Below, piece by piece: positions 48,546 through 61,754 of a stretch of DNA of 64,000 nucleotides (its first letter is position 1; every line of letters starts with the position of its first letter). The notes beneath the pieces were generated by a model. It saw nothing but the letters and a program-made list of their open reading frames with translations. It did no database searches and was not told the DNA's origin. The stretch spans positions 6,196 through 70,195 of the forward strand of contig CAKOJJ010000004.1 in the NCBI GenBank assembly GCA_934089275.1. Reading direction: 5' to 3'. Source of the stretch: an uncultured Bacilli bacterium. Its GTDB lineage: Bacteria; Bacillota_I; Bacilli_A; RF39; UBA660. The translations under genes and the position numbers were made by a program.

Positions 48546-49658
48546 TTAATCTAATTTATCTATTAAATTAACAACTTCAGATAGAGCAGAATTGAATAAA
48601 TGAGTGTACGTATTTAAAGTCTCTTCTATCTTCGTATGCCCTAAATACTTGGCTACAACGGCGATGTTGGCACCATTATTAACAAGTAGAGATGCACATG
48701 AATGTCTGAAGTCGTGAATTCTTATTTGTTTGACTCCTGCAAGAGAGCAATTTCTGTTTTTGATATCCCTAATAGTATTACTAGCAACAGGGAAAGCATC
48801 TCCGCAAACAAAATAGTTATCATTGAAACCATGTATCTTTGAATCCTCTTCTTTAAGCCTTTTAAGGTCTTCTAAGAGCTTTTTATTGATAGGCAGGGTT
48901 CTTATACTACTACGAGTCTTTGGAGTGGAGAATTCGAATGATTTAACACCACCACCACGATCTGTAATTTGTTTGTTAACTGATAAAGTTTTTTTGACTA
49001 AATCTATATTAGACCAGGTTAATCCTCTGAGTTCTCCTTTTCTTAATCCACAGTAGTAAAGTATTTCAAACATAACTCTATGTTTAAGATTATTCTCAAC
49101 AGATAAGAACTGTTTAAATTCATCATATGTGAAATATAACATTTCTTTTTGAATATCTGAAGATGATGAAAATTTAGTCATCTTAGAATATACTTTAGTA
49201 AGATTAAAATCATACCATGTCATAGCATAGTTAAGAACAGACTTTAAGAACTTTAAGATTTCATTTTTATATCTTGTTGATAAATTACTAGCATTAATCT
49301 CTTTCTTCCAATTATCATAATGATTAATGTTGAAATTTTTTAACTTAACATTTAGTAAGCTCTTCAGGTAGTTCTTTTTATTTCCATAGTTATATAGAGT
49401 AGTAGGTTTAACTTCAATAGTAGAAGTCCTATTATCTACAAATAGATCAATCATTTCATCAAGTGTAATTTTATCTTGGTTCTCATGATTGTATAATTTC
49501 ATTCTAAATGCAAGTTCTGCTTCTTCAGCTTCTTTCTTAGTAGCATATTTACCAGACTTGTATTGTTTATTTCTTCCATCTAAGTCTTGATATCTTAATT
49601 TAAAGAACCAGACTCTGCCATCTTTAGTTTTGCCTTCTTTAGCTTTATAAACTCCCAT
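48546..49658 (-). CDS. tyrosine-type site-specific integrase
   Basis: Phage-integrase N-terminal SAM-like domain. Catalytic R...HDFRH...LGH...Y (TYTHL) pattern. Confidence 0.9.
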   Translation of the reverse strand: MGVYKAKEGKTKDGRVWFFKLRYQDLDGRNKQYKSGKYATKKEAEEAELAFRMKLYNHENQDKITLDEMIDLFVDNRTSTIEVKPTTLYNYGNKKNYLKSLLNVKLKNFNINHYDNWKKEINASNLSTRYKNEILKFLKSVLNYAMTWYDFNLTKVYSKMTKFSSSSDIQKEMLYFTYDEFKQFLSVENNLKHRVMFEILYYCGLRKGELRGLTWSNIDLVKKTLSVNKQITDRGGGVKSFEFSTPKTRSSIRTLPINKKLLEDLKRLKEEDSKIHGFNDNYFVCGDAFPVASNTIRDIKNRNCSLAGVKQIRIHDFRHSCASLLVNNGANIAVVAKYLGHTKIEETLNTYTHLFNSALSEVVNLIDKLD

Positions 49659-49729: not shown

Positions 49730-50095
49730 ATGATTCCATATACAACAGAAGAACTTTGTAGAAAGACTAATACATCATTAAGTGACTTCAAAAGAAGATT
49801 AAAAAGACTTAAAGAAGTAGGATTAGTGGAACTAAAAGATGATATGTTATATATAGAAGAAGCACTTAATTACACCAATCAAACAGTAGGTGCTAAAAAG
49901 AAACAAGAGCAAAGAAAAAAGAAAAAGGACAAAATTCCACTTGATTGTCCACCAGATATAGATAAAGAAATAGAAGAAGAAAAAGAAATAAGAGATAAGA
50001 AAAAAGAAGAAAGAGGAAAGAGTTTAGATATAGAACTACAACAAGAAGAAGATAATACTGATTTCGATAGTTTATTGAATTATTATTCACACTAA
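49730..50095 (+). CDS. truncated phage replisome-organizer-like protein (N-terminal domain fragment)
   Basis: MIPYTTEELCRKTN...LKRLKEVGLVEL matches the C-terminal half of the replisome organizer wHTH. The frame stays open upstream into the integrase gene without a start codon. Lys/Glu-rich tail. Confidence 0.5.
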   Translation: MIPYTTEELCRKTNTSLSDFKRRLKRLKEVGLVELKDDMLYIEEALNYTNQTVGAKKKQEQRKKKKDKIPLDCPPDIDKEIEEEKEIRDKKKEERGKSLDIELQQEEDNTDFDSLLNYYSH

Positions 50096-50236
50096 TAATG
50101 TAGACATTTATTGAGGAGTCCCCCCTAGGGTACTCTCTTTTTATTTGAGTAAATTTCTACACCCACAGCCCACCTATATTTACACAAAAAAATATTTTCC
50201 GTGAGTTTTTTGGAAAATGACATTAAAAAAGAGTAA

Positions 50237-50560
50237 TTAATACTCAATTTTTTTAAAAGTTAAAGGATCTTCACTTATTACTTCTAATGCATATTTAATC
50301 CTTAAAAGTTTTCCAACTTCTGTAGATACATTTACTTCATTTATTTCTGTGATGTTTAAAATATCTCTTGCTGAATTGAATTCTTGCATCCACGTTGTCT
50401 CATACATAGCATGTCGATAATAAGCATTAGCTATATAATAAGAAATAACCTCAGGAAGTATATAACATTCTAGATATTCATCATAGTTGTCAACAAATGG
50501 TTTTAATACTTTAATATATTCCTCATCCGTTATATCTTCTCCAGTCTCAGGTCTAATCAT
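50237..50560 (-). CDS. hypothetical protein (paralogue of 61440-61754)
   Basis: Shares ...ITDEE(Y/F)... and overall length and pattern with the 104-aa ORF at 61440-61754. ATG at 50560 follows GGAGGTG. Confidence 0.45.
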   Translation of the reverse strand: MIRPETGEDITDEEYIKVLKPFVDNYDEYLECYILPEVISYYIANAYYRHAMYETTWMQEFNSARDILNITEINEVNVSTEVGKLLRIKYALEVISEDPLTFKKIEY

Positions 50561-50690
50561 ATTCACCTCCAAATATTGTTCTATTAATCACTTATTAATA
50601 ACTATATTACAAGTATAATAATCTATTAAAATAAGGTTCCTAAGTATTATATAAATATGTTATAATTATTAAGGAAGATAGGAGGCTAAC

Positions 50691-51569
50691 ATGAAAAAAG
50701 AAGTAATTAGTTCACCAATACGTTGGGCTGGTTCAAAGAAAAAACTCCTAAATGAAATGCTTGAAAAACCCTTTAAAAGAAAGAAGAAAAACTATGTTGA
50801 ATGTTTTCTAGGATCAGGCGTCGTATTATTAAATGTTATTAATAATAATGAGGAATTAGAATATGAAAACTTTTATGTAAATGATATTAATTCAAACATT
50901 ATTAATTTTTATATTCTTTTACAAAAAAATCCTGACTATCTTATAAATACTATAAAACCTTTGAGTGAAAAGTATAACAGTTTATCTATAAATGAAAAAT
51001 CTGATTTATTCTATGAAATCAGAAATAGATTTAATCGTTCTGAAGACTCAAATGAGAAGTCAATATATTTTTATTTTTTGATGAAAACGGGATTTAATGG
51101 CGTTTATAGAGAAAATAGCAAAGGCTATTTTAATGTGCCGTTTGGAAGAAAAGAAAAAATAATAATAGATGATAATTATTTATATACAATATCTAGGTTA
51201 ATAAAGAGGGTTAAGTTTTATAATTTGCCATTTGAAGAATTTCTAAATAAATTGAACAAAAAAGGTATTTTAGAGGATTCTTTTGTGTATTGTGATCCGC
51301 CATACTTACCAGATGATTTGCTAGTTTATCAAAAGCAAATGCTTTATACAAAAGATTCGTTTAATCACGAAAAATTCTTTGATATAATCAATGAAATGAA
51401 AATTGATAATATAATGATTTCAATGTCTGAATCTAAAATCGCAGATAAGATATATAATCATAATCCATTTTACAAAATAGATGTAAGAAATATTATTAGA
51501 GTTATTAATCCAAAAAAACTATTCTCATCAAAAGAAATAGCTTACATTAATTACAGAATAGAGGAGTGA
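50691..51569 (+). CDS. D12-class (Dam-like) N6-adenine DNA methyltransferase
   Basis: RWAGSKKKL N-terminus, FLGSG (FxGxG) then DPPY (VYCDPPYLP), which is the alpha-group motif order. Confidence 0.85.
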   Translation: MKKEVISSPIRWAGSKKKLLNEMLEKPFKRKKKNYVECFLGSGVVLLNVINNNEELEYENFYVNDINSNIINFYILLQKNPDYLINTIKPLSEKYNSLSINEKSDLFYEIRNRFNRSEDSNEKSIYFYFLMKTGFNGVYRENSKGYFNVPFGRKEKIIIDDNYLYTISRLIKRVKFYNLPFEEFLNKLNKKGILEDSFVYCDPPYLPDDLLVYQKQMLYTKDSFNHEKFFDIINEMKIDNIMISMSESKIADKIYNHNPFYKIDVRNIIRVINPKKLFSSKEIAYINYRIEE

Positions 51570-51626
51570 AAAAACACTCTTTTTTTATACAAAAAAGGAA
51601 ATAAACATAAAATATTATGAAAATAT

Positions 51627-51655
51627 TTGACAAATATTGTTCTTTTTGGTATATT
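51627..51655 (+). promoter_or_regulatory. sigma-A type promoter of the four-gene GHKL operon
   Basis: TTGACA-17 nt-TATATT. Confidence 0.6.
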
Positions 51656-51678
51656 TTAAGCGAATGGAGGAAATGTTT

Positions 51679-51894
51679 ATGGATGTTAAAAAAGAAAATT
51701 TTAAAAGAATTGCAGAAAACAGAGTTAGCAAGATTATTGATTTAATATCTAAATTACATAATTTATCAAACACTTCATTTTATGAGTATACTGATGAACA
51801 AATAGATAAGATTTTTGATAGTATACAGAAAGAACTTGATAAGCAAAAAGCCGAGTTTAAAAAATCAAAAAACAAAAGGAGAATAGAATTATAG
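51679..51894 (+). CDS. small coiled-coil protein, first gene of the GHKL operon
   Basis: 71 aa from the ATG at 51679, 8 nt after GGAGG. The track start at 51637 lies inside the promoter. Confidence 0.5.
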   Translation: MDVKKENFKRIAENRVSKIIDLISKLHNLSNTSFYEYTDEQIDKIFDSIQKELDKQKAEFKKSKNKRRIEL

Positions 51895-51906
51895 GAGGTA
51901 ATTAAT

Positions 51907-53862
51907 ATGTTTGATAAAATTTTTAACAATAAAAAGAGTGATCCTGTTTGGCAATTTATTACAAATGGAAATGCTGATATGAATAGTGTAGAATCTACCG
52001 ATACTGAAAGCTTTCAAAAAGTTCCAATTGATTCTTTAGCAAGAGAATTAACACAAAACTCATTGGATGCAAGAGCAGGTGAAAAGCCAGCTGTAATAGA
52101 ATTTAAGACTTTCACTATGAGAACTATTGATATTCCAGGAATAAAAGAATTGAAAGATGAAATATCTGCTTGTATTAATTTTTATCCTGAAACTACTATG
52201 TATCATAGAATGTTTAAAAAAATGTTAGATGAATTAGAAAAAGAAAATATTTTATGTTTAAGAATAAGTGATTTTAATACTTCAGGATTAGATGGAGTGG
52301 CAAGTAATAAAAATATGACACCTTTTAATTTTCTAGTAAAAGGTAATGGATTCTCAAGTAAAAAAGGTGCTAATAGCGGTGGTTCTAAAGGAATGGGAAA
52401 ATTCTCTACCTTTTTATCTAGTAGCATTCATACAGTTTTTTACTCAACTCTAAATCAAAATAAAGAAAAAGGATATATGGGAGTAGTAAAACTTGGTGCT
52501 AGAGAAATAGATGATGATTCAGGATTAATGACAACTGGAAAAGGATATTTCAGCATAGGCGAAAGAATTTCACCAATTTTAGAAGATCTAAATCTTGATA
52601 AAGATTTTAAGAGGGAAAAAGATGATGTTGGAACTGATGTTTATGTTTTAGGTTTCAAAAAACCTTCAAATTGGGAAACACAAATTATTGCAAAAGTATT
52701 AGATAGTTTTATGGTTGCAATTGATAGTGGAGATTTAGAAGTTAAAGTTGAAGATAAAGGAATTATTAATAAAGAAACTTTACAATCTTTTGTTTATGAA
52801 ACAAAGTTCTATAAAGTAGATAAAAGAAATATAGAAAGTCAATATGAATTACTACATGATAAATTTGTTCATTCAAAAGAAGTTGATATTCATGGTAGAG
52901 GAACAATAGAGTTTAAACTTAAAGAATATCATAGAGAAGAACGTGAAAAAGCTACTAATAAATGTATAATGATAAGACATCCATACATGAAAATTAAAGA
53001 TTTAACAATAGGATATCCAGTAGCTGCTAGTGCCATGTGTATTATTAAAGAAAATGAACTTAATCAAATGCTAAAAAATATTGAAAATGCAGAACATACA
53101 AATTGGGAACCAAAAAGAATAGAAACAATAACTGGCGATCCGTTAATGGAAAAAGAAATGAGAAGAATTTTAAGTGATATAAAAGATGAATTGGATAAGT
53201 TTGTGTTAGAAGCTCTATTGTCAGGAAAATCAGAAAGAATTGATTTAGAATTTGCAGGAGATTTTCTTCCTGACTTAAGCACTGGTGATGATAACGCATC
53301 TATTCAACAAGAACCTATTCCTGATATTCCAAATGTTGGTGAAGTTGAGAGAATTAAAGATAATAATAAGTTTGGAACAGTTGAAGATGAAAATGCAAAT
53401 TCAATTACTCCAGATATTGGAAGTCATAGTGAAGAAGGCGATGAATCAATTATTCCTGATGGTAATAATTCCAGTGGTTCTGGTGATGTTCATGAAGGAG
53501 AAAATGAAACTGGATTTAATCCAGAAGGAGATGATGTAGTTATGAGAAAAGTTCGTTTAAGCAATTTAAAGCCAAAAGTATTAATGCTTGACAAGAAAAA
53601 TGGAAAATATTTAATTACATTTAAAGCACCAGATAACATCTCTTCTGCCGAATTGGAATTCTATTATTTAGATGATAATGATCAAAAGTATATTCCTACA
53701 ATTAAGGCTGCTAGAATTAATAATGGGCAATGTAATATAGAAGACAATAAAATCGTTGGATTCACTATGAAAAAAGATGAAGTAATAAAACTCGAACTTG
53801 AAACTGATTTGAATGATATATATGCATGTGAGGTGAAGGTCTATGCCAAAGTTAGCGAATAA
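51907..53862 (+). CDS. GHKL (Bergerat-fold) ATPase, MutL/MORC-like N-terminal domain, with acidic linker and C-terminal beta-rich domain
   Basis: N-box ELTQNSLDA (compare MutL ELVENSLDA), LRISDFNTSGL (DxGxG-like), GGSKGMGKFS (G2 box) and VGTDVYVLGF (GT motif). Confidence 0.75.
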   Translation: MFDKIFNNKKSDPVWQFITNGNADMNSVESTDTESFQKVPIDSLARELTQNSLDARAGEKPAVIEFKTFTMRTIDIPGIKELKDEISACINFYPETTMYHRMFKKMLDELEKENILCLRISDFNTSGLDGVASNKNMTPFNFLVKGNGFSSKKGANSGGSKGMGKFSTFLSSSIHTVFYSTLNQNKEKGYMGVVKLGAREIDDDSGLMTTGKGYFSIGERISPILEDLNLDKDFKREKDDVGTDVYVLGFKKPSNWETQIIAKVLDSFMVAIDSGDLEVKVEDKGIINKETLQSFVYETKFYKVDKRNIESQYELLHDKFVHSKEVDIHGRGTIEFKLKEYHREEREKATNKCIMIRHPYMKIKDLTIGYPVAASAMCIIKENELNQMLKNIENAEHTNWEPKRIETITGDPLMEKEMRRILSDIKDELDKFVLEALLSGKSERIDLEFAGDFLPDLSTGDDNASIQQEPIPDIPNVGEVERIKDNNKFGTVEDENANSITPDIGSHSEEGDESIIPDGNNSSGSGDVHEGENETGFNPEGDDVVMRKVRLSNLKPKVLMLDKKNGKYLITFKAPDNISSAELEFYYLDDNDQKYIPTIKAARINNGQCNIEDNKIVGFTMKKDEVIKLELETDLNDIYACEVKVYAKVSE

Positions 53863-54760
53863 GAATTATCCATATCCAATTATTACAAAAGATGCCTCAT
53901 TGAGTTCATATAATGGTATATCATATTCATTTTCTTTTGAAAAAGAAACAAATGAAACTCAACTAATATTAAAAAATGCCAAAATAGAAACAGACAGTAA
54001 AAGTTTAATTAATTTATTAAAAGAGAATAAAGTTAAGGCAGTTGTGTTTGTTTCATGCACTAAAACATATTTTAGATATACAACAGAAATTGGAACAGAA
54101 CCAAGAGATATTGTTTTGAAACTAAGTGATTTGAAAGATAAAGTTACTATTTCAGCATATGTATTTGCAAATGAAGAACTTGTCGAATATAAAAGTGATG
54201 AATGTAATGAATATTACAAAGATTATAGCTTTGATATAGATAAATATTGTTTATTTGCTATTGATGATGGATATAAATTGCCAGTAGAATATGATGATTA
54301 TAGTGATAAAAAAGTTTCATCAATATTTAGTGTTGCTGAAATTGAGGAAGATGTAGATAGATTAATAAAAGTTTATCCTGAAGAAAAAAATATTGTTATA
54401 GCTATACCCAAAAAAGAGTGTGAAGATTATTATAATATGAAAGATTTAGAAGATTATTCAGCTTTGTTTTTATCTTTACTTGGATGTCCAGCATTAACCA
54501 CTTGTTTGAATGAGCTTCAAAAAGAGGGAAAAGCTATTGAAGAAATAGTAGAGCAATATTCATGGTTTAAAACAATAGTTAAAACATATAAAAGAATAAA
54601 TGGCGTTGATTTAGATGATAGTTTATTTGAGCAAATGAATTGCTTTGAATTCTCCCAACAAGCATTGGGAAATTGCAATGTTACAGCAATATCAACAATA
54701 TTAACTAATTATCAAAAAGCCGTTAAATCAGCTAATGAAGATGAGGAGGAAAGTGAATAA
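53843..54760 (+). CDS. hypothetical protein, third gene of the GHKL operon
   Basis: 305-aa ORF overlapping the upstream stop by 20 nt. No motif recognised. Confidence 0.55.
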   Translation: MPKLANKNYPYPIITKDASLSSYNGISYSFSFEKETNETQLILKNAKIETDSKSLINLLKENKVKAVVFVSCTKTYFRYTTEIGTEPRDIVLKLSDLKDKVTISAYVFANEELVEYKSDECNEYYKDYSFDIDKYCLFAIDDGYKLPVEYDDYSDKKVSSIFSVAEIEEDVDRLIKVYPEEKNIVIAIPKKECEDYYNMKDLEDYSALFLSLLGCPALTTCLNELQKEGKAIEEIVEQYSWFKTIVKTYKRINGVDLDDSLFEQMNCFEFSQQALGNCNVTAISTILTNYQKAVKSANEDEEESE

Positions 54761-55563
54761 TGAGTAAAATAAATATAGAATATACAACTGATAATACAGT
54801 AAGTTATTTACATACAAATCCTGACTTTGTTAAGAAAAAAGTTAACGATAATATATATGATTCAAGTTGGTTAAATGAATCATTAAACGATCAACCATTT
54901 ATTCCGTTAAAATATAAAGTAGAAGATTTTGATTTGAAACTAGATGCTAATGACAATTACAATAAAGTAATGATAGATAATGCAATTACATTATATGAAA
55001 GCCTAAAAGATTTACCAAGAAGGCTTTTGACAGAAGAAAGATTTTGGCTATGGATTACATTTAAGAAATGTTATAGAGCATCAATTCAAAGCATGGGAGA
55101 TAGGATAGAAGGACAATGGATTTTTACAAGAGGAATTCCGAGAAGTATATGGTTTAATGTTCATTCTAGAAGTTATTTTTGGGTTGAATGCACAGTGAAA
55201 GATGATTCAAATGACAAATATGAATATACAAAATTCGCTTTGGAAAAAATAGAAAGAATAAGGAATTTAACATTTGATTCTAATAAACCTAAAAATATAA
55301 TTTATAATGCTGTTAGAGCAGAAAAAGCTATATATGATAAATATTCTAAAAACCCTGAATATGAAGAAGTCTATAAAAAATGTGAATCAGGTAGTTTAGG
55401 ACTTAATATCTATGAAAAAATAAGAAAAGATATTTCTTTATATGGTAGTGTTAGATTACTAAGTGTAATGTCAGATGAAGATATATTCAAATTTGTATAT
55501 AATAAAATAGAAAAGATAATATTAGAAGTAAAGAATGGTAATACAAGCATTCTTTCAAAATAA
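54760..55563 (+). CDS. hypothetical protein, fourth gene of the GHKL operon
   Basis: 267-aa ORF with TAATG stop/start overlap. Trp/Arg-rich central block (RFWLWITF...RSIWFNVHSRSYFWVE). No family recognised. Confidence 0.55.
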   Translation: MSKINIEYTTDNTVSYLHTNPDFVKKKVNDNIYDSSWLNESLNDQPFIPLKYKVEDFDLKLDANDNYNKVMIDNAITLYESLKDLPRRLLTEERFWLWITFKKCYRASIQSMGDRIEGQWIFTRGIPRSIWFNVHSRSYFWVECTVKDDSNDKYEYTKFALEKIERIRNLTFDSNKPKNIIYNAVRAEKAIYDKYSKNPEYEEVYKKCESGSLGLNIYEKIRKDISLYGSVRLLSVMSDEDIFKFVYNKIEKIILEVKNGNTSILSK

Positions 55564-55564
55564 A

Positions 55565-55590
55565 AAAGATACATCAATTTGTATCTTTTT
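55565..55590. terminator. bidirectional hairpin between convergent genes
   Basis: AAAGATACA / TGTATCTTT stem flanked by A- and T-runs. Overlaps the stop of the C5-methyltransferase gene. Confidence 0.55.
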
Positions 55591-56827
55591 CTTGTTCTAT
55601 GATTTTTTCTAATTCTATTCCAATTCTTTCAATTATTCCAACTACCAATGCATTTCCCATCATGAAATTTCTTTTTTTATCACTCATACCTGTATTAGTC
55701 CAATTATCTGGGAAGCAATTAATTCTTTCACATTCAACTGGTGTTAATAGTCTAATTTTTTTAGTTTTATAGTCTTCTACTATATGAGTAGTTCTACTAA
55801 CTCCACCTTCGCTAGTTAGCATAGTTCTAGCTGGAGCTTCTAAATTATCAGGACATGGCATAGCACCTTCAGTATAGAAATATTCTTCTCCGTTAGGTTT
55901 AACTCTTGGGATTCTTTTACCACCTTTTAAGTATTCAAACTTTTTATAAGCTTCATCACTAAGGAAGAATTTTTTATCAACTTCATCGTGTAAGATGATA
56001 TTTTTTAAAGGATATATTTCATCACAATCAGAGGCAACTTTTGAAGTATATACTTTACCGTTCATCATAACACCTGAATTATAAAATTGTGATTTAAATT
56101 TATCGCTTACTTCAACTAAATCTTTAAAAGAATCTTTTGATAAATTAGCTGTGTTAAATTCTAACTCAGTATCTTTAATAGGAAATTGTTTAACAAACAT
56201 TCCATCTTTAAAAATTATATCTTTAGGATTACTCTTTGAAAGTGATTTATAATACTCTGTAGATTTATGATAAGCAAAGATAAATACTCTTCTTCTTTTT
56301 TGCGGTAAACCGTATTCTCCAGCATTAATTACTCTCCATTGGACAGCATATCCATTATCCATGAAACTTCTTAATATAATACCGAAATCTCTACCTCTTT
56401 GTTTAGCAGGAGATAATAATAATCTATCAACGTTTTCTAATAATACAAATGGTGGTTTTTTAGCTTTTAATATATCATTGATAGCCCACCAAAGAACTCC
56501 TTTTTTGCCCTCAATACCTTTACTATTTGAAAGTGTTTGAGCAACAGAGTAATCTTGACATGGAAATCCACCAACTAAAAGTGTATGATTTGGAATTTCT
56601 TTTTTCTTAACTTGGAATATATCAACGTTACTTGCATCTTTGTCACCAAATCTTTTAACATAACAATCAAAAGCTTCTTGTGTTTTAGTAGATGGTTCCC
56701 ATTGATTAGCCCACACAAATTTCCAATCTCCATTTTCTTTAACTTTATTATTTTTTAATTCAACTTTATTTAAACCACACCTAAATCCACCAACACCAGC
56801 AAATAATTCTACTACAGTTTTCTCCAT
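55574..56827 (-). CDS. DNA (cytosine-5)-methyltransferase (M.Sau3AI-like)
   Basis: Motif I FAGVGGF, motif IV GGFPCQDYS, motif VI ENV, motif VIII QKRRRVFI and motif X GNALVV. Confidence 0.92.
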   Translation of the reverse strand: MEKTVVELFAGVGGFRCGLNKVELKNNKVKENGDWKFVWANQWEPSTKTQEAFDCYVKRFGDKDASNVDIFQVKKKEIPNHTLLVGGFPCQDYSVAQTLSNSKGIEGKKGVLWWAINDILKAKKPPFVLLENVDRLLLSPAKQRGRDFGIILRSFMDNGYAVQWRVINAGEYGLPQKRRRVFIFAYHKSTEYYKSLSKSNPKDIIFKDGMFVKQFPIKDTELEFNTANLSKDSFKDLVEVSDKFKSQFYNSGVMMNGKVYTSKVASDCDEIYPLKNIILHDEVDKKFFLSDEAYKKFEYLKGGKRIPRVKPNGEEYFYTEGAMPCPDNLEAPARTMLTSEGGVSRTTHIVEDYKTKKIRLLTPVECERINCFPDNWTNTGMSDKKRNFMMGNALVVGIIERIGIELEKIIEQEKDTN

Positions 56828-56999
56828 GATTTTCTACCTCCTGACATTGTCTAAATCCTCTAAATATATTATAATATATTTGATTGGAAAGATCAACTTT
56901 TGACTTATATTATTATATAATAATAAATAAAAAAGATTAATCTTATAATTATATTTTAAACTAATTTTTTGATTAAAACAAGATCGAAAGGAGAATTTT

Positions 57000-58385
57000 A
57001 TGAAAAAAGGTAGATTATACAATAGACAGGAAATACAATTAATATCTAAATCAGCAATTGGTAAATCAATAAATGATATTATGAATGAAGAAGTAATTAC
57101 AATTGGTGAGAATAATATTTCTAATAAAGGAAGTTTAGGACAACTTGTAGAGCAATTCTTATTTGGTATGGAGAATAATAGCGAATCAGAACCTGATTTT
57201 ATGCCAGCTGGTATAGAATTAAAAGTAACTCCTTATAAAAAAATAAAAGGTGGAAAATTATCTGCAAAGGAAAGATTAGTTTTAAATATTATAAATTATA
57301 TGGATGAATACAAGAATGATTTTGAGAATAGTCATTTTTGGTTTAAAAATAAAGCTATTCAATTATTATGGTATTTATGGGAACCAAATAAAGATACGAA
57401 AGATTTAAAAATAACACATGAAAAGCTATTAGAATTAACAGAAAATGAAGATTTAAATCAGATAAAAGAGGATTGGGAATACATAATTAATAAAATAAAA
57501 GAAGGAAAAGCTCATGAAATATCAGAAGCAGATACAATGTATTTAGGAGCTTGTTCTAAGGGTGCAAATGCTAGTTCGGTTCGTGAACAACCATTTAGTG
57601 ATATACCAGCTATGCAAAGAGCGTTTTGTTTTAAAAATTCTTATATGACTCAGTTAGTTAGAAAGTATATTGGTGATTATTCTGATGTAGAAAAAATCCT
57701 TAAGGGTACAACCAATACATTTAATGAATTTATTGATAACGTAATTAATAAATATAAAGGTAAATCTCAAAATGAATTGATGAAAGAATTTGATATAGAT
57801 TCATCTGCTAAGAATATTAATAATATGATTGTTAGTAGAATGTTTAATGTAAAAAGTAAATTAGCTGAAACAGAAGAATTTCAAAAAGCTAATATTGTTC
57901 CAAGAACTATTAGAATTGAAGAAAATGGTAGAATTAAAGAATCACTTTCTTTTCCAGCATTTAAATTTACTGATATAGTAGAACAAGATTGGGAATCATG
58001 TGATTTAAGAGAAGAATTGGAAACAACTAAATATATGTTTTTTGTGTTTAAAAAAGAAAAAGATGATTATATATTTAAAGGTATTAAGTTATGGAATATG
58101 CCAGAAATGGATATAGAAACATCAGTTATGGAAATGTGGAAGAAAACATATAACACAATTAAAAGTGGAAATATTGTTAGATATATTAAAGATGGTAAGA
58201 GAAAAACTAACTTCGTAGGAATGAGTGAAAACGAAGTTTGCCATGTAAGACCTCATGGAAGAGATTCAAAAGATACATTTAAATTACCAGTAGCTGATAA
58301 ATTAACAAAAGCAACTGAATATACTAAACAATGCTTTTGGATTAATAATAGTTATATTAAAGAAATATTTAAAGAATTTCTTTAA
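57000..58385 (+). CDS. type II restriction endonuclease, MutH/Sau3AI family (GATC-type)
   Basis: NKGSLGQLVEQFLFG...SEPDF...GIELKVTP and IKEDWEYI blocks match the MutH catalytic core (D...ELK). The size fits two-domain Sau3AI. Divergent from the C5 methyltransferase gene. Confidence 0.85.
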   Translation: MKKGRLYNRQEIQLISKSAIGKSINDIMNEEVITIGENNISNKGSLGQLVEQFLFGMENNSESEPDFMPAGIELKVTPYKKIKGGKLSAKERLVLNIINYMDEYKNDFENSHFWFKNKAIQLLWYLWEPNKDTKDLKITHEKLLELTENEDLNQIKEDWEYIINKIKEGKAHEISEADTMYLGACSKGANASSVREQPFSDIPAMQRAFCFKNSYMTQLVRKYIGDYSDVEKILKGTTNTFNEFIDNVINKYKGKSQNELMKEFDIDSSAKNINNMIVSRMFNVKSKLAETEEFQKANIVPRTIRIEENGRIKESLSFPAFKFTDIVEQDWESCDLREELETTKYMFFVFKKEKDDYIFKGIKLWNMPEMDIETSVMEMWKKTYNTIKSGNIVRYIKDGKRKTNFVGMSENEVCHVRPHGRDSKDTFKLPVADKLTKATEYTKQCFWINNSYIKEIFKEFL

Positions 58386-58616: not shown

Positions 58617-58796
58617 ATGGATAAAGAACGATGGATAATAATAAATAGATTTCAAAAAAAGTATAAGACAAGTAAAGAAAAGGAAGAAGCCTTAAAAAAA
58701 ATGGTAAATAAAGATATTAATTTTCTAATTTATTGTTCTGATAATTTATATGCAAATATTTTTTATTCTAAGTTTTTAAAAAAAGAAGAAAAATGA
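58617..58796 (+). CDS. small hypothetical protein (59 aa, not in the ORF track)
   Basis: ATG at 58617 to TGA at 58794-58796, translating MDKERWIIINRFQKKYKTSKEKEEALKKMVNKDINFLIYCSDNLYANIFYSKFLKKEEK. The GGAGG at 58580-58584 lies about 30 nt upstream, so the true start is uncertain. Confidence 0.35.
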   Translation: MDKERWIIINRFQKKYKTSKEKEEALKKMVNKDINFLIYCSDNLYANIFYSKFLKKEEK

Positions 58797-58821
58797 TAAA
58801 ATAAATGTGAGGAGTGGTGCT

Positions 58822-59067
58822 ATGAAAGATGATTTATTTAATTATTTGGTAGCTACTGATACTTTAGATGAGTTTTTGGGTAAGAAACCTATAATTATTT
58901 CAAATAAAGTAAAATGTATAAATTGTGGTGAAATAATAGAATCTAAAACAATAAATGATTTTAAAAGATGTTCTTGTGGAAAAATTGCTATTGATGGTGG
59001 TAAAGAATATTTAAAAAGAATTGGAAATGAAGAGGATTATATTGAATTAAGTGAAGTAGAAGAATAA
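58822..59067 (+). CDS. small zinc-ribbon protein
   Basis: CINCG...CSCG four-Cys ribbon followed by IDGGKEYLKRIG. ATG at 58822 follows GAGGAG. Confidence 0.55.
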   Translation: MKDDLFNYLVATDTLDEFLGKKPIIISNKVKCINCGEIIESKTINDFKRCSCGKIAIDGGKEYLKRIGNEEDYIELSEVEE

Positions 59068-59162: not shown

Positions 59163-59202
59163 GTGGTATAATATATTAAATTAATTCTTTTTGGGAGGTT
59201 GT

Positions 59203-61392
59203 ATGATACAAGAAATAAAACTTAAAGATGTAGCTACTTATAAGGACGAAAAATTAACATCAAAAAAAATTAATTTTATATATGGAAATAACGGAACTGG
59301 AAAAACGACAATTTCTAGATTTATAGAGAATCCAAATGAGTTAAAATTTAGTAAATCTAAAATTAATTTTGACGAAACTGGTGAATGTAATAAATTAATT
59401 TATAATCAAGATTTTGTGAAAATTAATTTTAATCCAGAAACAGGACTAAGAGGTATATATACTTTTGGTGAAGAATCAGAAGAAAAATATAAACTTATTG
59501 AAAAATTAAAGAAAGAAAAAGATGAATTAAAAATAAAACTTATACAGAATAAAACAAAAATTGACAATATGAACAATAGTATTATTGATATTAAAAATAA
59601 AGCTACTAATAAATTATGGGATACTTTAAAAAAGAAATATTGCGACAATACTCCTGAATTGTACAAAGGATATTTAGGGAAAAAAGACCAATTTTTTTCT
59701 AAATGTATTAGTGTGGAATATACTGATGATGTTTTAGATAATGACAAGATTGTCAAAGAATATAATTTATTATATAAGGAAGAACCTATAGAAAAGAAAT
59801 TATTACAATCTGTAGATTTTACTTCAATTGTTCCTATTAAAAATAGTGAAATATTTCAAACTGAAATTATTGAAAATAAAGATATTAAGTTGTCAAAATT
59901 GATTGATGATTTAAATAATGGTAATTGGGTTGAAGAAGGTCTATCATATTTAGATCATTCAGATAATAAATGCCCATTTTGCCAACAAGACATTACAAAA
60001 GAATTTATTAATAAAATATATGGACTTTATGATGGAAAATATAAAAAAGAAAAAGATGAGTTTTTTCTTAAAAGAAATTCTTTAATATATAAAATAGATG
60101 AATTTAAGAATTTTATATTAGAAAATGCTTTATTAATAGATGATTCTGAATTGATTGCAAATATTAATTTATATTTTGATAAAGCATTAGAAGAATTATC
60201 AAAAAAAGAAAATGATTTAAAATATAAATGTAGTTTTCCTGAAAATGATGAAATTTTTGATAGAATTGAAAAAAAGATAACCGATGTAAATAAATTAATA
60301 ACTGAAAATAATAATAAAATTAAAGAAATATCTACAAGTAGACAAAAATTATCAGATAATGCATGGAAATTTTTAAGAAATAGTTGTGAACTTGAATTGA
60401 AAGAATACTTTAAAGAAACGGAAAAAAACAATATAGAGTTAAAAAAGGTTATTGAAGATAATGAAAAGATTAATACTAGTATTCAAGAAATTGATGTTGA
60501 AATCAAAAAATTAGAGGATTCTATTACAAGTATCACAAAGACAATTACGCAAATTAATACAACTTTAGAAAAATTCAATTTTACTAATTTTAAATTAAAA
60601 GGAAATGAAGATCATTTAACATATTCAATTATTCGCCCTGATGGTTCTAACGCATCTTCAACATTAAGTGAAGGGGAATTCAGTTTTATTTCATTTTTAT
60701 ATTTTTATAATCTTATTTTTGGCAGTAGAACGAGAAGTGGATTAGAAGAAAATCATATTTTAGTAATCGATGATCCTGTAACCAGTATGGATAGCAATAC
60801 TTTATTTATTATTAGTACTCTTGTACGAGAATTGATAGAATTATGTTTGAATGACAGAAGACATATAAAACAAATATTTATTTTTTCTCATAATTTATAT
60901 TTTTTTAAGGAAGTTGCATATGGATATGATGATGCAAGAAAGAGATTAAATAGGGAAAATGTTGAATTTGCAGTTGTTTCTAAAGTTAATGGAGAATCAC
61001 AAATAAAATCATTTGGTTGCACAAATACAATCAAAACATCATATGAATTATTGTGGAATAAATTGAGAGAAAAAGAATTTGATGATGATTCAATTCAAAA
61101 TACTATGAGAAGAGTTTTAGAACAGTTCTTAAAAATGATTGATTATGGTGGACCAAATAATCGTAATACAGAATTAATAAATATGTTTGATGATATTGAT
61201 AAACCTATTGTTAAATCCTTATTAAGTTATATTAATGACGGTTCTCATAGTATTATGGACGACTTATATATATCACGTGATGCAACAGCTAATGAAAATG
61301 CCTTGAAAATTTTCAAACAAATATTTATAAAATTGGGCTTTAAAAATCATTATAATAGAATGATGAATGAAACCGAAGAAGAAGATAAATAA
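59203..61392 (+). CDS. AAA_13-type ABC-like ATPase, RloC/PrrC-like anticodon nuclease candidate
   Basis: GNNGTGKTT Walker A, CPFCQQ zinc hook, long coiled coil, LSEGEFSF signature and ILVIDDPVTSMD Walker B. C-terminal RRVLEQF ... NDGSHS matches the R-x3-E ... H pattern of PrrC/RloC nuclease domains. Confidence 0.7.
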   Translation: MIQEIKLKDVATYKDEKLTSKKINFIYGNNGTGKTTISRFIENPNELKFSKSKINFDETGECNKLIYNQDFVKINFNPETGLRGIYTFGEESEEKYKLIEKLKKEKDELKIKLIQNKTKIDNMNNSIIDIKNKATNKLWDTLKKKYCDNTPELYKGYLGKKDQFFSKCISVEYTDDVLDNDKIVKEYNLLYKEEPIEKKLLQSVDFTSIVPIKNSEIFQTEIIENKDIKLSKLIDDLNNGNWVEEGLSYLDHSDNKCPFCQQDITKEFINKIYGLYDGKYKKEKDEFFLKRNSLIYKIDEFKNFILENALLIDDSELIANINLYFDKALEELSKKENDLKYKCSFPENDEIFDRIEKKITDVNKLITENNNKIKEISTSRQKLSDNAWKFLRNSCELELKEYFKETEKNNIELKKVIEDNEKINTSIQEIDVEIKKLEDSITSITKTITQINTTLEKFNFTNFKLKGNEDHLTYSIIRPDGSNASSTLSEGEFSFISFLYFYNLIFGSRTRSGLEENHILVIDDPVTSMDSNTLFIISTLVRELIELCLNDRRHIKQIFIFSHNLYFFKEVAYGYDDARKRLNRENVEFAVVSKVNGESQIKSFGCTNTIKTSYELLWNKLREKEFDDDSIQNTMRRVLEQFLKMIDYGGPNNRNTELINMFDDIDKPIVKSLLSYINDGSHSIMDDLYISRDATANENALKIFKQIFIKLGFKNHYNRMMNETEEEDK

Positions 61393-61439: not shown

Positions 61440-61754
61440 CTATAATTTAATCATTTGTGATGTTTTTCTATCAACTATCTTTAACTTATATTTATCTTTT
61501 AATATTTTATCTAATTTATCATAATTAAATATTCCATCAAGTAATGAATCAGTAAATCTAGTTAATGCTGAATTGACTTGTTGCTCTAATGTACATTCCC
61601 ACAATGCACTCATTTCATATCCTATAGCTAAGTAATGTGCAACATATTCATACATATATTTTATTAAGTATTTATCCATTTTTTTATCAAATGGAATTAT
61701 TATGTTTAAAAACTCTTCATCAGTGATATTACCACAACTATTTTTCCTTATCAT
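61440..61754 (-). CDS. hypothetical protein (paralogue of 50237-50560)
   Basis: 104 aa with the shared ITDEEF block. An operator-like palindrome lies upstream. Confidence 0.45.
   Translation of the reverse strand: MIRKNSCGNITDEEFLNIIIPFDKKMDKYLIKYMYEYVAHYLAIGYEMSALWECTLEQQVNSALTRFTDSLLDGIFNYDKLDKILKDKYKLKIVDRKTSQMIKL

Follow-up and report, generated by a model that had tools for sequence, protein, structure and literature searches.

What does a four-gene operon built around a GHKL ATPase do for its host, and does the DNA methyltransferase gene that stands just before it belong to the same machinery? This question is raised by a locus of an uncultured Bacilli bacterium (RF39, UBA660; assembly GCA_934089275.1), from which 64,000 nucleotides (nt) of contig CAKOJJ010000004.1 were analysed. 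This whole stretch is called the window, and positions are counted from its first letter. In its list of open reading frames (ORFs), four plus-strand ORFs of 71, 651, 305 and 267 amino acids (aa) make up an intact operon, and their products are referred to as the leader protein and proteins A, B and C. A preliminary description regarded the operon as an uncharacterised defence candidate that matches no named system. The second part of this statement has to be withdrawn, since A, B and C match end to end, and in the same order, the models PDC-M33A, PDC-M33B and PDC-M33C of PADLOC-DB v2, and C belongs to Pfam DUF6339. The first part holds, as no experimentally characterised system matches. We conclude with high confidence that the operon is an intact member of PDC-M33, a cassette of Bacillota, and that it stands in a defence-type context.

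Identity of the operon

Protein A (51907..53862) matches PDC-M33A with an E-value of 8.7e-129, its residues 15-647 lying on positions 5-625 of a profile of 627. Protein B (53843..54760) matches PDC-M33B at 3.5e-51 (residues 4-288 on profile positions 3-281 of 289), and protein C (54760..55563) matches PDC-M33C at 2.7e-19. PDC stands for "phage defence candidate" in PADLOC, and PDC-M33 corresponds to cassette CAS_00129, FAM_02818>>FAM_02838>>FAM_01881, which is listed with number 98 (Payne et al., bioRxiv 10.1101/2024.01.29.577857). The gene order A>>B>>C of the window agrees with this entry, and the genes are adjacent and overlapping. Pfam recognises C alone, as DUF6339 (6.6e-20), and no match to A or B was found in Pfam or NCBIfam. 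A PHROGs search gave no significant match, and a full-text literature search on PDC-M33 and on DUF6339 found no paper. The family is defined by three genes. The leader gene, the methyltransferase linkage and the optional sigma-70-region-4 protein, all described below, lie outside the PADLOC models and the cassette entry of the supplement.

Protein A as a predicted GHKL ATPase

Sequence alone had not shown the fold of protein A, which is a predicted GHKL ATPase by its modelled structure. In the AlphaFold model (pLDDT 75, from a 28-sequence alignment), residues ~14-440 form a confident two-domain module, namely a GHKL N-domain and a middle/transducer domain. An Asp/Glu/Gly-rich segment at 441-546 follows with pLDDT below 50, and residues 546-650 are modelled as a C-terminal beta-sandwich; the acidic linker and beta-rich C-terminal domain that had been proposed are therefore borne out by the model. 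Foldseek against the Protein Data Bank (PDB) retrieved Hsp90/TRAP1, Topo VI-B, ParE and SMCHD1 with E-values of 6.6e-7 to 1e-3. These matches cover 430-470 aligned columns with low TM-scores of 0.24-0.32, which are attributed to differing domain orientations. The matches identify the confident part of protein A as a GHKL ATPase with a middle/transducer domain.

The four Bergerat motifs lie where they had been placed, ELTQNSLDA at residues 47-55, LRISDFNTSGL at 118-128, GGSKGMGKFS at 158-167 and VGTDVYVLGF at 241-250. Their conservation was examined in 77 orthologues from different species, which are 27-48% identical to the window protein. Invariant residues are R46, E47, Q50, N51, S52, D54 and A55 in the N-box region, then R119, S121, D122, T125, G127, G159, S160, G162, G164 and K165, and further T181, G242, D244, R357, M361, E393, H397 and W400; K362 is kept in 76 of the 77. 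Motifs I-IV of the GHKL fold (E47/N51/D54, D122/G127, G158-K165 and G242/D244) are thus present and invariant or nearly so. Judged from this conservation, the predicted ATP site is under strong purifying selection.

Another conserved feature links A to a described group. At the C-terminal end of the second domain stands E393-N-x-x-H397, and this ExxxH is invariant in the 77 orthologues. ExxxH is the signature of paraMORC2, a mostly cyanobacterial and Gram-positive group with a predicted role in restriction-modification (R-M) (Iyer, Abhiman and Aravind, 2008; PMC2292703). With the signature present, membership of A in paraMORC2 is plausible and not established. The label "MutL/MORC-like" given earlier to A holds only approximately. 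No match to A was found in Pfam or NCBIfam, including their MutL and HATPase models, the C-terminus is a beta-sandwich, and MutL is outside the top structural matches. Protein A is not a MutL. It has more than 1,200 full-length homologues, none of which carries a precomputed Pfam domain.

The linker of A has a conserved pattern of its own. In the "acidic linker" (window 53230-53545, residues ~441-546), P475, G505, P517, G519, N521 and G536 are invariant or nearly so, and the pattern reads PDIGxHxExGExSxxPEGxNxGSGGxxHxGxNExG. To judge from this pattern, the linker may serve as a peptide for docking or for binding a metal.

Proteins B and C and the leader protein

Protein B begins with a PYP motif, followed by a beta-sandwich region (~28-189) and a helical bundle (190-304), in a model with pLDDT 87 (45-sequence alignment). 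Foldseek gave only weak matches of the FnIII/cytokine-receptor type (E at least 2e-3), and no nuclease fold was found for the model by this search. The invariant residues of B are P12, S160, F162, P216, W241 and Q272, none of which is acidic or histidine. On the model, B is probably a non-catalytic adaptor. The preliminary description presumed that the effector is one of the two partner proteins; for B this is unsupported, because neither a nuclease-like match nor an invariant acidic or His residue is present, and C stays a candidate. B was also considered as a Toprim or PD-(D/E)xK protein on account of E71, 'DDG' and 'IEK', and this was rejected, since these positions vary and the model is a beta-sandwich. 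The 'DDG' is replaced by 'GKQ' in most of the family, and position 71 is Glu in about 90% of the family and Ser, Thr or Asn throughout the clade to which the window belongs (the window clade).

Protein C is Trp/Arg-rich and is a candidate DNA-recognition or effector subunit. N20 and W96 are invariant in C, and N74, Y79, L85, R94, R128, R137, D147 and D235 are near-invariant. When 1.84 billion representative proteins were searched in full with HMMER, relatives of C appeared in only 121 representative clusters, mostly of ~250 aa; in the longer relatives no other defence-related domain was found. No relative of C was found in the PDB or among other Pfam families, and a comparison of all 55 members of the C alignment with Pfam, at E up to 1, revealed no second family that recurs. 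When A, B and C were compared with PDB chain sequences, as single sequences and as profiles, only chance-level matches appeared. A ParB-like reading of C, suggested by a G-x-R-R motif and by analogy to AbiRii, is without sequence support in the Pfam scan and remains no more than a lead.

The 71-aa leader protein (51679..51894) is, by its conservation, a genuine fourth component of the cassette. In at least 54 of 80 loci from as many species (see below), a homologue stands immediately upstream, and these homologues share the motif NFKRIAExRxNKIIDxIxxLxNLSNxSxYEYT. Searches with the leader protein in Pfam, NCBIfam, PADLOC and PHROG gave no significant match.

Distribution and defence context

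In a collection of 185,579 species genomes, one per species, at least 542 loci encode a relative. With this number and the more than 1,200 full-length homologues of A, the operon is far beyond chance. The gene neighbourhood was studied in a sample of 80 of these matching loci, from 80 species genomes, which span Bacilli, Erysipelotrichaceae, Anaeroplasmataceae, Veillonella, Clostridia, Enterococcus and Ligilactobacillus. Wherever the sequence extends far enough, which is so in 80 species loci, A, B and C are always colinear. Genes for GmrSD, Cas9, Vsr and Schlafen-type helicases are neighbours in family loci. On a conjugative Lactococcus lactis plasmid, the cassette lies beside an AlwI R-M system with a Dam-family methylase and AbiGI/GII, and it was also found on megaplasmids of L. 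salivarius. Plasmid pS127 of L. lactis carries a native copy. The cassette is mobile and located among defence genes. Only 5 relatives were found in IMG/VR, and the cassette is therefore not a typical phage gene.

One phage copy deserves mention. In the temperate Clostridium innocuum phage NatCom_9291 (PV036421.1; locus L097, 1907-8274), the small gene and A-B-C lie beside an integrase gene. The C version of this cassette has 354 aa, and a DNA methyltransferase is encoded 1 kb downstream.

Methyltransferase linkage

The gene that precedes the operon in the window (50691..51569, plus strand) encodes a Dam-family (D12 class) N6-adenine methyltransferase (Pfam MethyltransfD12, 6.5e-40; TIGR00571 dam, 172 bits against a cut-off of 115). 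It ends 58 bp before the operon promoter, and no endonuclease gene stands beside it. We propose this gene as the functional partner of the cassette, and the proposal is based on the family-wide pattern.

In a phmmer survey of the 80 loci, 52 Dam/Dcm genes were found, all of them at most 2 kb from the cassette edge and 34 within 500 bp; 625 kb of flank at 2-10 kb from the cassette contained none. Counted by locus, such a gene stands no more than 2 kb from the cassette in 48 of the 80 species loci. A Dam-family gene was found in 33 loci, a Dcm-family gene in 22, and at least one of the two kinds in 53 of the 80 when 6 kb are considered, and among the loci with full context 34 of 48 have a Dam/Dcm gene nearby. 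The position of the methyltransferase gene varies, as it may precede the cassette, in the same orientation or divergently, or follow it; in two loci (L060 and L064) it stands between the leader gene and A. In the window and family-wide, a candidate methyltransferase is genetically linked to the cassette, as methylation-gated defence would need. Such recurrent and tight linkage, which the preliminary description missed, suggests a functional tie between the operon and the Dam-like gene before it, rather than a chance neighbourhood.

The loci are diverse in what accompanies the methyltransferase. About 20 loci, of the same kind as the window, have a Dam gene without a recognised endonuclease partner. 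In about 13 others the Dam gene is paired with a DUF6996/6997/7226 protein, classed by PADLOC as a type II endonuclease (1.8e-83). A Dcm-linked clade has complete type II R-M units, either Dcm-NgoFVII fusions or AlwI/FokI-like enzymes with Vsr. The fusions are single polypeptides of 680-697 aa (L062:11086-13128, minus strand; also L068, L078, L079 and L088) consisting of a C5-methyltransferase, an NgoFVII-type PLD endonuclease and a B3-like DNA-binding domain, a make-up checked by Pfam on the L062 protein. They are convergent with the cassette end, at 14-40 bp in four loci and about 840 bp in L079. A small gene lies beyond the fusion in several loci, and its copy in L088 encodes a helix-turn-helix (HTH) protein.

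Sigma-like accessory protein

In 34 of the 80 loci, a protein of ~860-1,100 aa with sigma-70 region 4 is encoded directly adjacent to the cassette on the same strand; the window is without this gene. In 21 of these loci the gene separates the leader gene from A, and in the other 13 it follows C. One of these proteins also has a segment similar to the RNA polymerase alpha-CTD. The similarity to MzaA is weak (NCBIfam 8e-10, well below the family cut-off) and confined to the region 4 HTH. In two examples (L088:9652-12861 and L014:1289-3871) no known domain was found in the remainder of the protein. Mza and AbiR each have a sigma-70-like protein of about this size, MzaA and AbiRi respectively. A tblastn search of a plasmid collection with the sigma-like accessory protein found no lactococcal or AbiR-like locus.

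Operon layout and the surrounding island

The architecture of the operon is as first described, with coordinates that agree for the four coupled ORFs. The small ORF extends over 51637..51894, and its 71-aa reading starts from the ATG at 51679, 7 nt after GGAGGA. The gap between leader gene and A is 12 nt, A and B overlap by 20 nt, and B and C overlap by 1 nt (TAATG). The promoter assigned to the operon, TTGACA-17-TATATT with a TG-extended -10 (51627..51655, plus strand), is present and is the best sigma-70-like site in 50000-57000, with 11 of 12 matches. The promoter region is kept in three relatives whose protein A is 98%, 74% and 64% identical, and the -35 hexamer is TTGACA in two of them and TTTGCA in the 64% relative. 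Three AATATT hexamers at 51611, 51622 and 51633 (window 51611-51638) flank the -35 box with 11-bp spacing and are almost fully kept in the same three relatives; they could be an operator, perhaps for the leader protein.

The hairpin terminator at the operon end is also real. It consists of AAAAAGATACA-TCAATT-TGTATCTTTTT followed by more T (55563..55590, plus strand), folds at -11 kcal/mol (z = -3.8 against shuffles), and is common to the operon and the convergent dcm gene, the stop codon of which lies inside the loop. A consensus terminator scan missed it because the stem is poor in G-C pairs. Another terminator-like hairpin, GAGTG-A6-CACTC then T7 (51564..51586, plus strand; listed on the minus strand by the terminator scan), stands after the Dam gene. 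The two closer relatives (98% and 74%) have kept it, and in the 64% relative it is degraded.

Downstream of the operon, dcm (55574-56827, minus strand) encodes a C5-methyltransferase (NCBIfam TIGR00675, 246 bits), and the next gene (57000-58385, plus strand) encodes a Sau3AI-family endonuclease, a homologue of MutH (restrict_Sau3AI, 518 bits against a cut-off of 300; Pfam MutH, 2.3e-30). The two genes (55574..58385) form a type II R-M pair of Sau3AI type, which travels with the cassette in the window clade. The seven-gene block Dam-small-A-B-C-Dcm-Sau3AI is kept in three loci of this clade (L089, L093 and L092) with different flanks, and a Veillonella locus (L041) has the same gene set with Dam, Dcm and Sau3AI downstream of C. 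An ORF at 48546-49658 (minus strand) is a putative integrase, for which the sole basis is a phmmer match to Phage_integrase-annotated ORFs in related loci. With this reservation for the integrase, the earlier placement of a real GHKL-based operon between a Dam-like methyltransferase and an R-M pair, in an integrase-marked and defence-rich island, is correct.

Further genes of the island were noted. At 59191-61392 (plus strand) a 733-aa AAA_13 ATPase is encoded, which matches PADLOC PDC-S06 end to end (9.2e-196) and, more weakly, LmuB and PrrC. PDC-S06 is another untested PADLOC candidate, so that the island holds at least two uncharacterised candidates, PDC-M33 and PDC-S06, and two methyltransferases. 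Two small ORFs precede the AAA_13 gene (58617-58796 and 58807-59067), the latter with CxxC...CxC spacing. The block from Dam to AAA_13 is bracketed by paralogous small genes at 50237-50572 and 61440-61754 (both minus strand; 31% identity, E 4e-14), which may be island boundary markers or regulators, and L089 has a 103-aa minus-strand gene in the equivalent upstream position.

A possible mechanism and its alternatives

We tentatively favour, at somewhat less than an even chance, the view that the cassette is an ATP-driven DNA-surveillance module for which DNA methylation serves as the self mark. Protein A would be a dimerising paraMORC-type GHKL ATPase that acts as a motor or clamp on DNA, like MutL, Topo VI-B, MORC and SMCHD1. 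Protein B would be a non-catalytic adaptor of beta-sandwich and helices, and the Trp/Arg-rich DUF6339 protein C would provide DNA recognition or be the effector. In many relatives the ~860-aa sigma-70-region-4 protein may add further DNA recognition. The adjacent methyltransferase would mark host DNA, and incoming DNA without the mark would be acted on. As there is no detectable nuclease in A or B, interference would be either non-nucleolytic or carried out through a neighbouring restriction enzyme. In the former case, replication or transcription might be blocked, as in BREX or in silencing of the MORC type; in the latter, the enzyme in the window might be the MutH-like Sau3AI homologue. We infer four parts of this scheme: the self mark set by the methyltransferase, the ATP-dependent dimerisation and DNA action of A, the DNA recognition by C or the sigma-like protein, and the mode of interference. 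A narrower version, which we consider unlikely, is nuclease-free immunity gated by methylation, in which the paraMORC-type GHKL ATPase would clamp or compact unmethylated invader DNA, with targeting via DUF6339 and often the sigma-70-like subunit. If true, it would be a bacterial counterpart of epigenetic silencing by MORC and SMCHD1, and a mechanistic relative of BREX.

Several observations weigh against methylation-gated surveillance. About 30% of the full-context loci have no Dam/Dcm gene nearby and show unrelated flanking genes, for example the Anaeroplasmataceae loci beside priA, and the methyltransferase is therefore not obligatory in cis. The complete R-M units of the Dcm-linked clade fit mere embedding beside R-M systems equally well, and the methyltransferase survey was based on phmmer and covered Dam- and Dcm-type enzymes only. 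DNA binding by A, B and C is an assumption within this reading. With models that cover A and B, the core may still contain a nuclease in C, and the window's B has Ser at the position of the Glu71 found in ~90% of the family, a clade-wide change. PDC-M33 itself is among 145 explicitly untested "guilt-by-embedding" candidates, which were drawn from genes that lie inside BREX, DISARM and type I R-M systems (Payne et al., bioRxiv 10.1101/2024.01.29.577857).

Some of the same facts would suit an autonomous system without any need for methylation, namely an abortive-infection or sensor system in which the Hsp90-like ATPase senses a phage protein or nucleic acid, C is a toxic effector, and the cassette has a habit of inserting at R-M loci. 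The loci in which A-B-C stands alone among unrelated genes would be expected under it, and so would the discovery of the family through embedding in other defence systems. Many of the adjacent methyltransferases have their own endonuclease, and in structure A is most similar to GHKL proteins of the chaperone type. We nevertheless regard this explanation as somewhat unlikely, because the linkage is methyltransferase-specific and extremely close, with all 52 Dam/Dcm genes within 2 kb, and because in the ~20 loci without a recognised endonuclease the Dam gene abuts the operon. In the window, moreover, the Dam gene should be dispensable for the Sau3AI system, which by established Sau3AI biology has its own C5-methylase.

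Alternatively, the cassette could be an accessory motor for a neighbouring type II enzyme. Protein A would then be a MutL-like activator or a DNA-looping factor and would stimulate the endonuclease beside it, in the window the MutH-like Sau3AI homologue, in an arrangement that mirrors MutL-MutH-Dam mismatch repair. The joint movement of Dam, cassette, C5-methylase and MutH-like Sau3AI as a seven-gene block in the window clade, and the same set in Veillonella, agree with such a role, as does the lack of a detectable nuclease in A and B. DNA looping between recognition and cleavage sites was indeed proposed for paraMORC-type GHKL ATPases in R-M operons (Iyer et al., 2008; PMC2292703). However, the partner endonucleases are structurally unrelated (DUF6996-type, NgoFVII PLD-type, AlwI/FokI-type, BglII-type and MutH-type) and many loci have none, so that a specific protein-protein partnership is unlikely to be general. 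The Sau3AI-type enzyme is present only in the window clade and 1 of the 80 species loci, and this role is improbable. A role outside defence, with the GHKL motor working on host DNA in repair, in chromosome or plasmid maintenance or in stabilisation of mobile elements, is quite improbable. Some loci do have housekeeping neighbours, among them priA and guaA, enzymes of repair and topology are found among the GHKL proteins, and no phenotype has been reported. Against it stand the patchy distribution (at least 542 loci in the 185,579 species genomes), the presence on plasmids and a prophage, the consistency with which defence genes are the neighbours, and the differing flanking contexts of the block in the window clade.

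Comparison with known systems

The Mza system (MzaABCDE) contains a MutL-like GHKL ATPase, and MzaB-E include GHKL, Z1 and AIPR proteins. It shares with PDC-M33 relatives a protein of the sigma-70 family, MzaA, to which the accessory protein of these relatives is weakly similar in the HTH only. However, A, B and C match no Mza model in PADLOC, Z1 and AIPR proteins are absent, and the operon of the window has no sigma-like gene. The window resembles MutL-MutH-Dam in encoding together a GHKL ATPase, a MutH-fold endonuclease of the Sau3AI family and a Dam-family methylase. It differs in that A has neither a MutL C-terminal domain nor a family match and in that MutS is not present, and the MutH-like neighbour is confined to the window clade and one other species locus (Veillonella, 1 of 80).

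The likeness to paraMORC2 consists of GHKL with a second domain, ExxxH, the Gram-positive range, and the association with Dam/Dcm methylase and Vsr (PMC2292703). The helicase and RE-fold nuclease partners of that paper are mostly absent here, and the fixed partners are B and DUF6339 instead. VcSduA, a GHKL-containing Shedu protein (paraMORC3), is a validated defence protein for which the GHKL ATPase is required (PMC12137116). Its ATPase is fused to a PD-(D/E)xK nuclease (DUF4263), whereas the C-terminal part of A is a beta-sandwich and the searches revealed no nuclease in A or B.

For a methylase-gated module, the closest experimentally supported analogue is AbiR of L. lactis pKR223, which is described in a review (PMC13064643). 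According to this review, AbiR flanks LlaKR2I, an R-M system that is an isoschizomer of Sau3AI; it needs the R-M methylase, and is toxic without it. Its components are given there as a sigma-70-like protein of ~820 aa, a ParB-like protein and an Snf2/endonuclease protein, with no GHKL ATPase among them. The operon of the window encodes no sigma-70-like, ParB-like or Snf2/endonuclease protein and, by these components, is not a member of AbiR.

Significance

Part of this picture was known, as the cassette had been catalogued as PDC-M33, and a general link between paraMORC GHKL ATPases and R-M operons had been proposed in 2008. GHKL/MORC-type ATPases were then predicted to have R-M-like roles and to be ancestors of the eukaryotic MORC silencers (Iyer et al., 2008; PMC2292703). 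New here are the conserved leader gene, the methyltransferase linkage, the sigma-like accessory protein, the link to paraMORC2 through ExxxH, and the non-catalytic nature predicted for B. As far as our literature search showed, no stand-alone multi-gene cassette of the GHKL/MORC type has been characterised. PDC-M33 is common in gut and rumen Bacillota, and occurs also on dairy Lactococcus plasmids and in a prophage. The set is compact, at four or five genes, and the modelled proteins A and B have so far shown no nuclease. If gating by methylation proves false, the operon would be one more uncharacterised island cassette. If it proves true, PDC-M33 would offer a tractable model of a GHKL motor that reads an epigenetic mark to silence foreign DNA.

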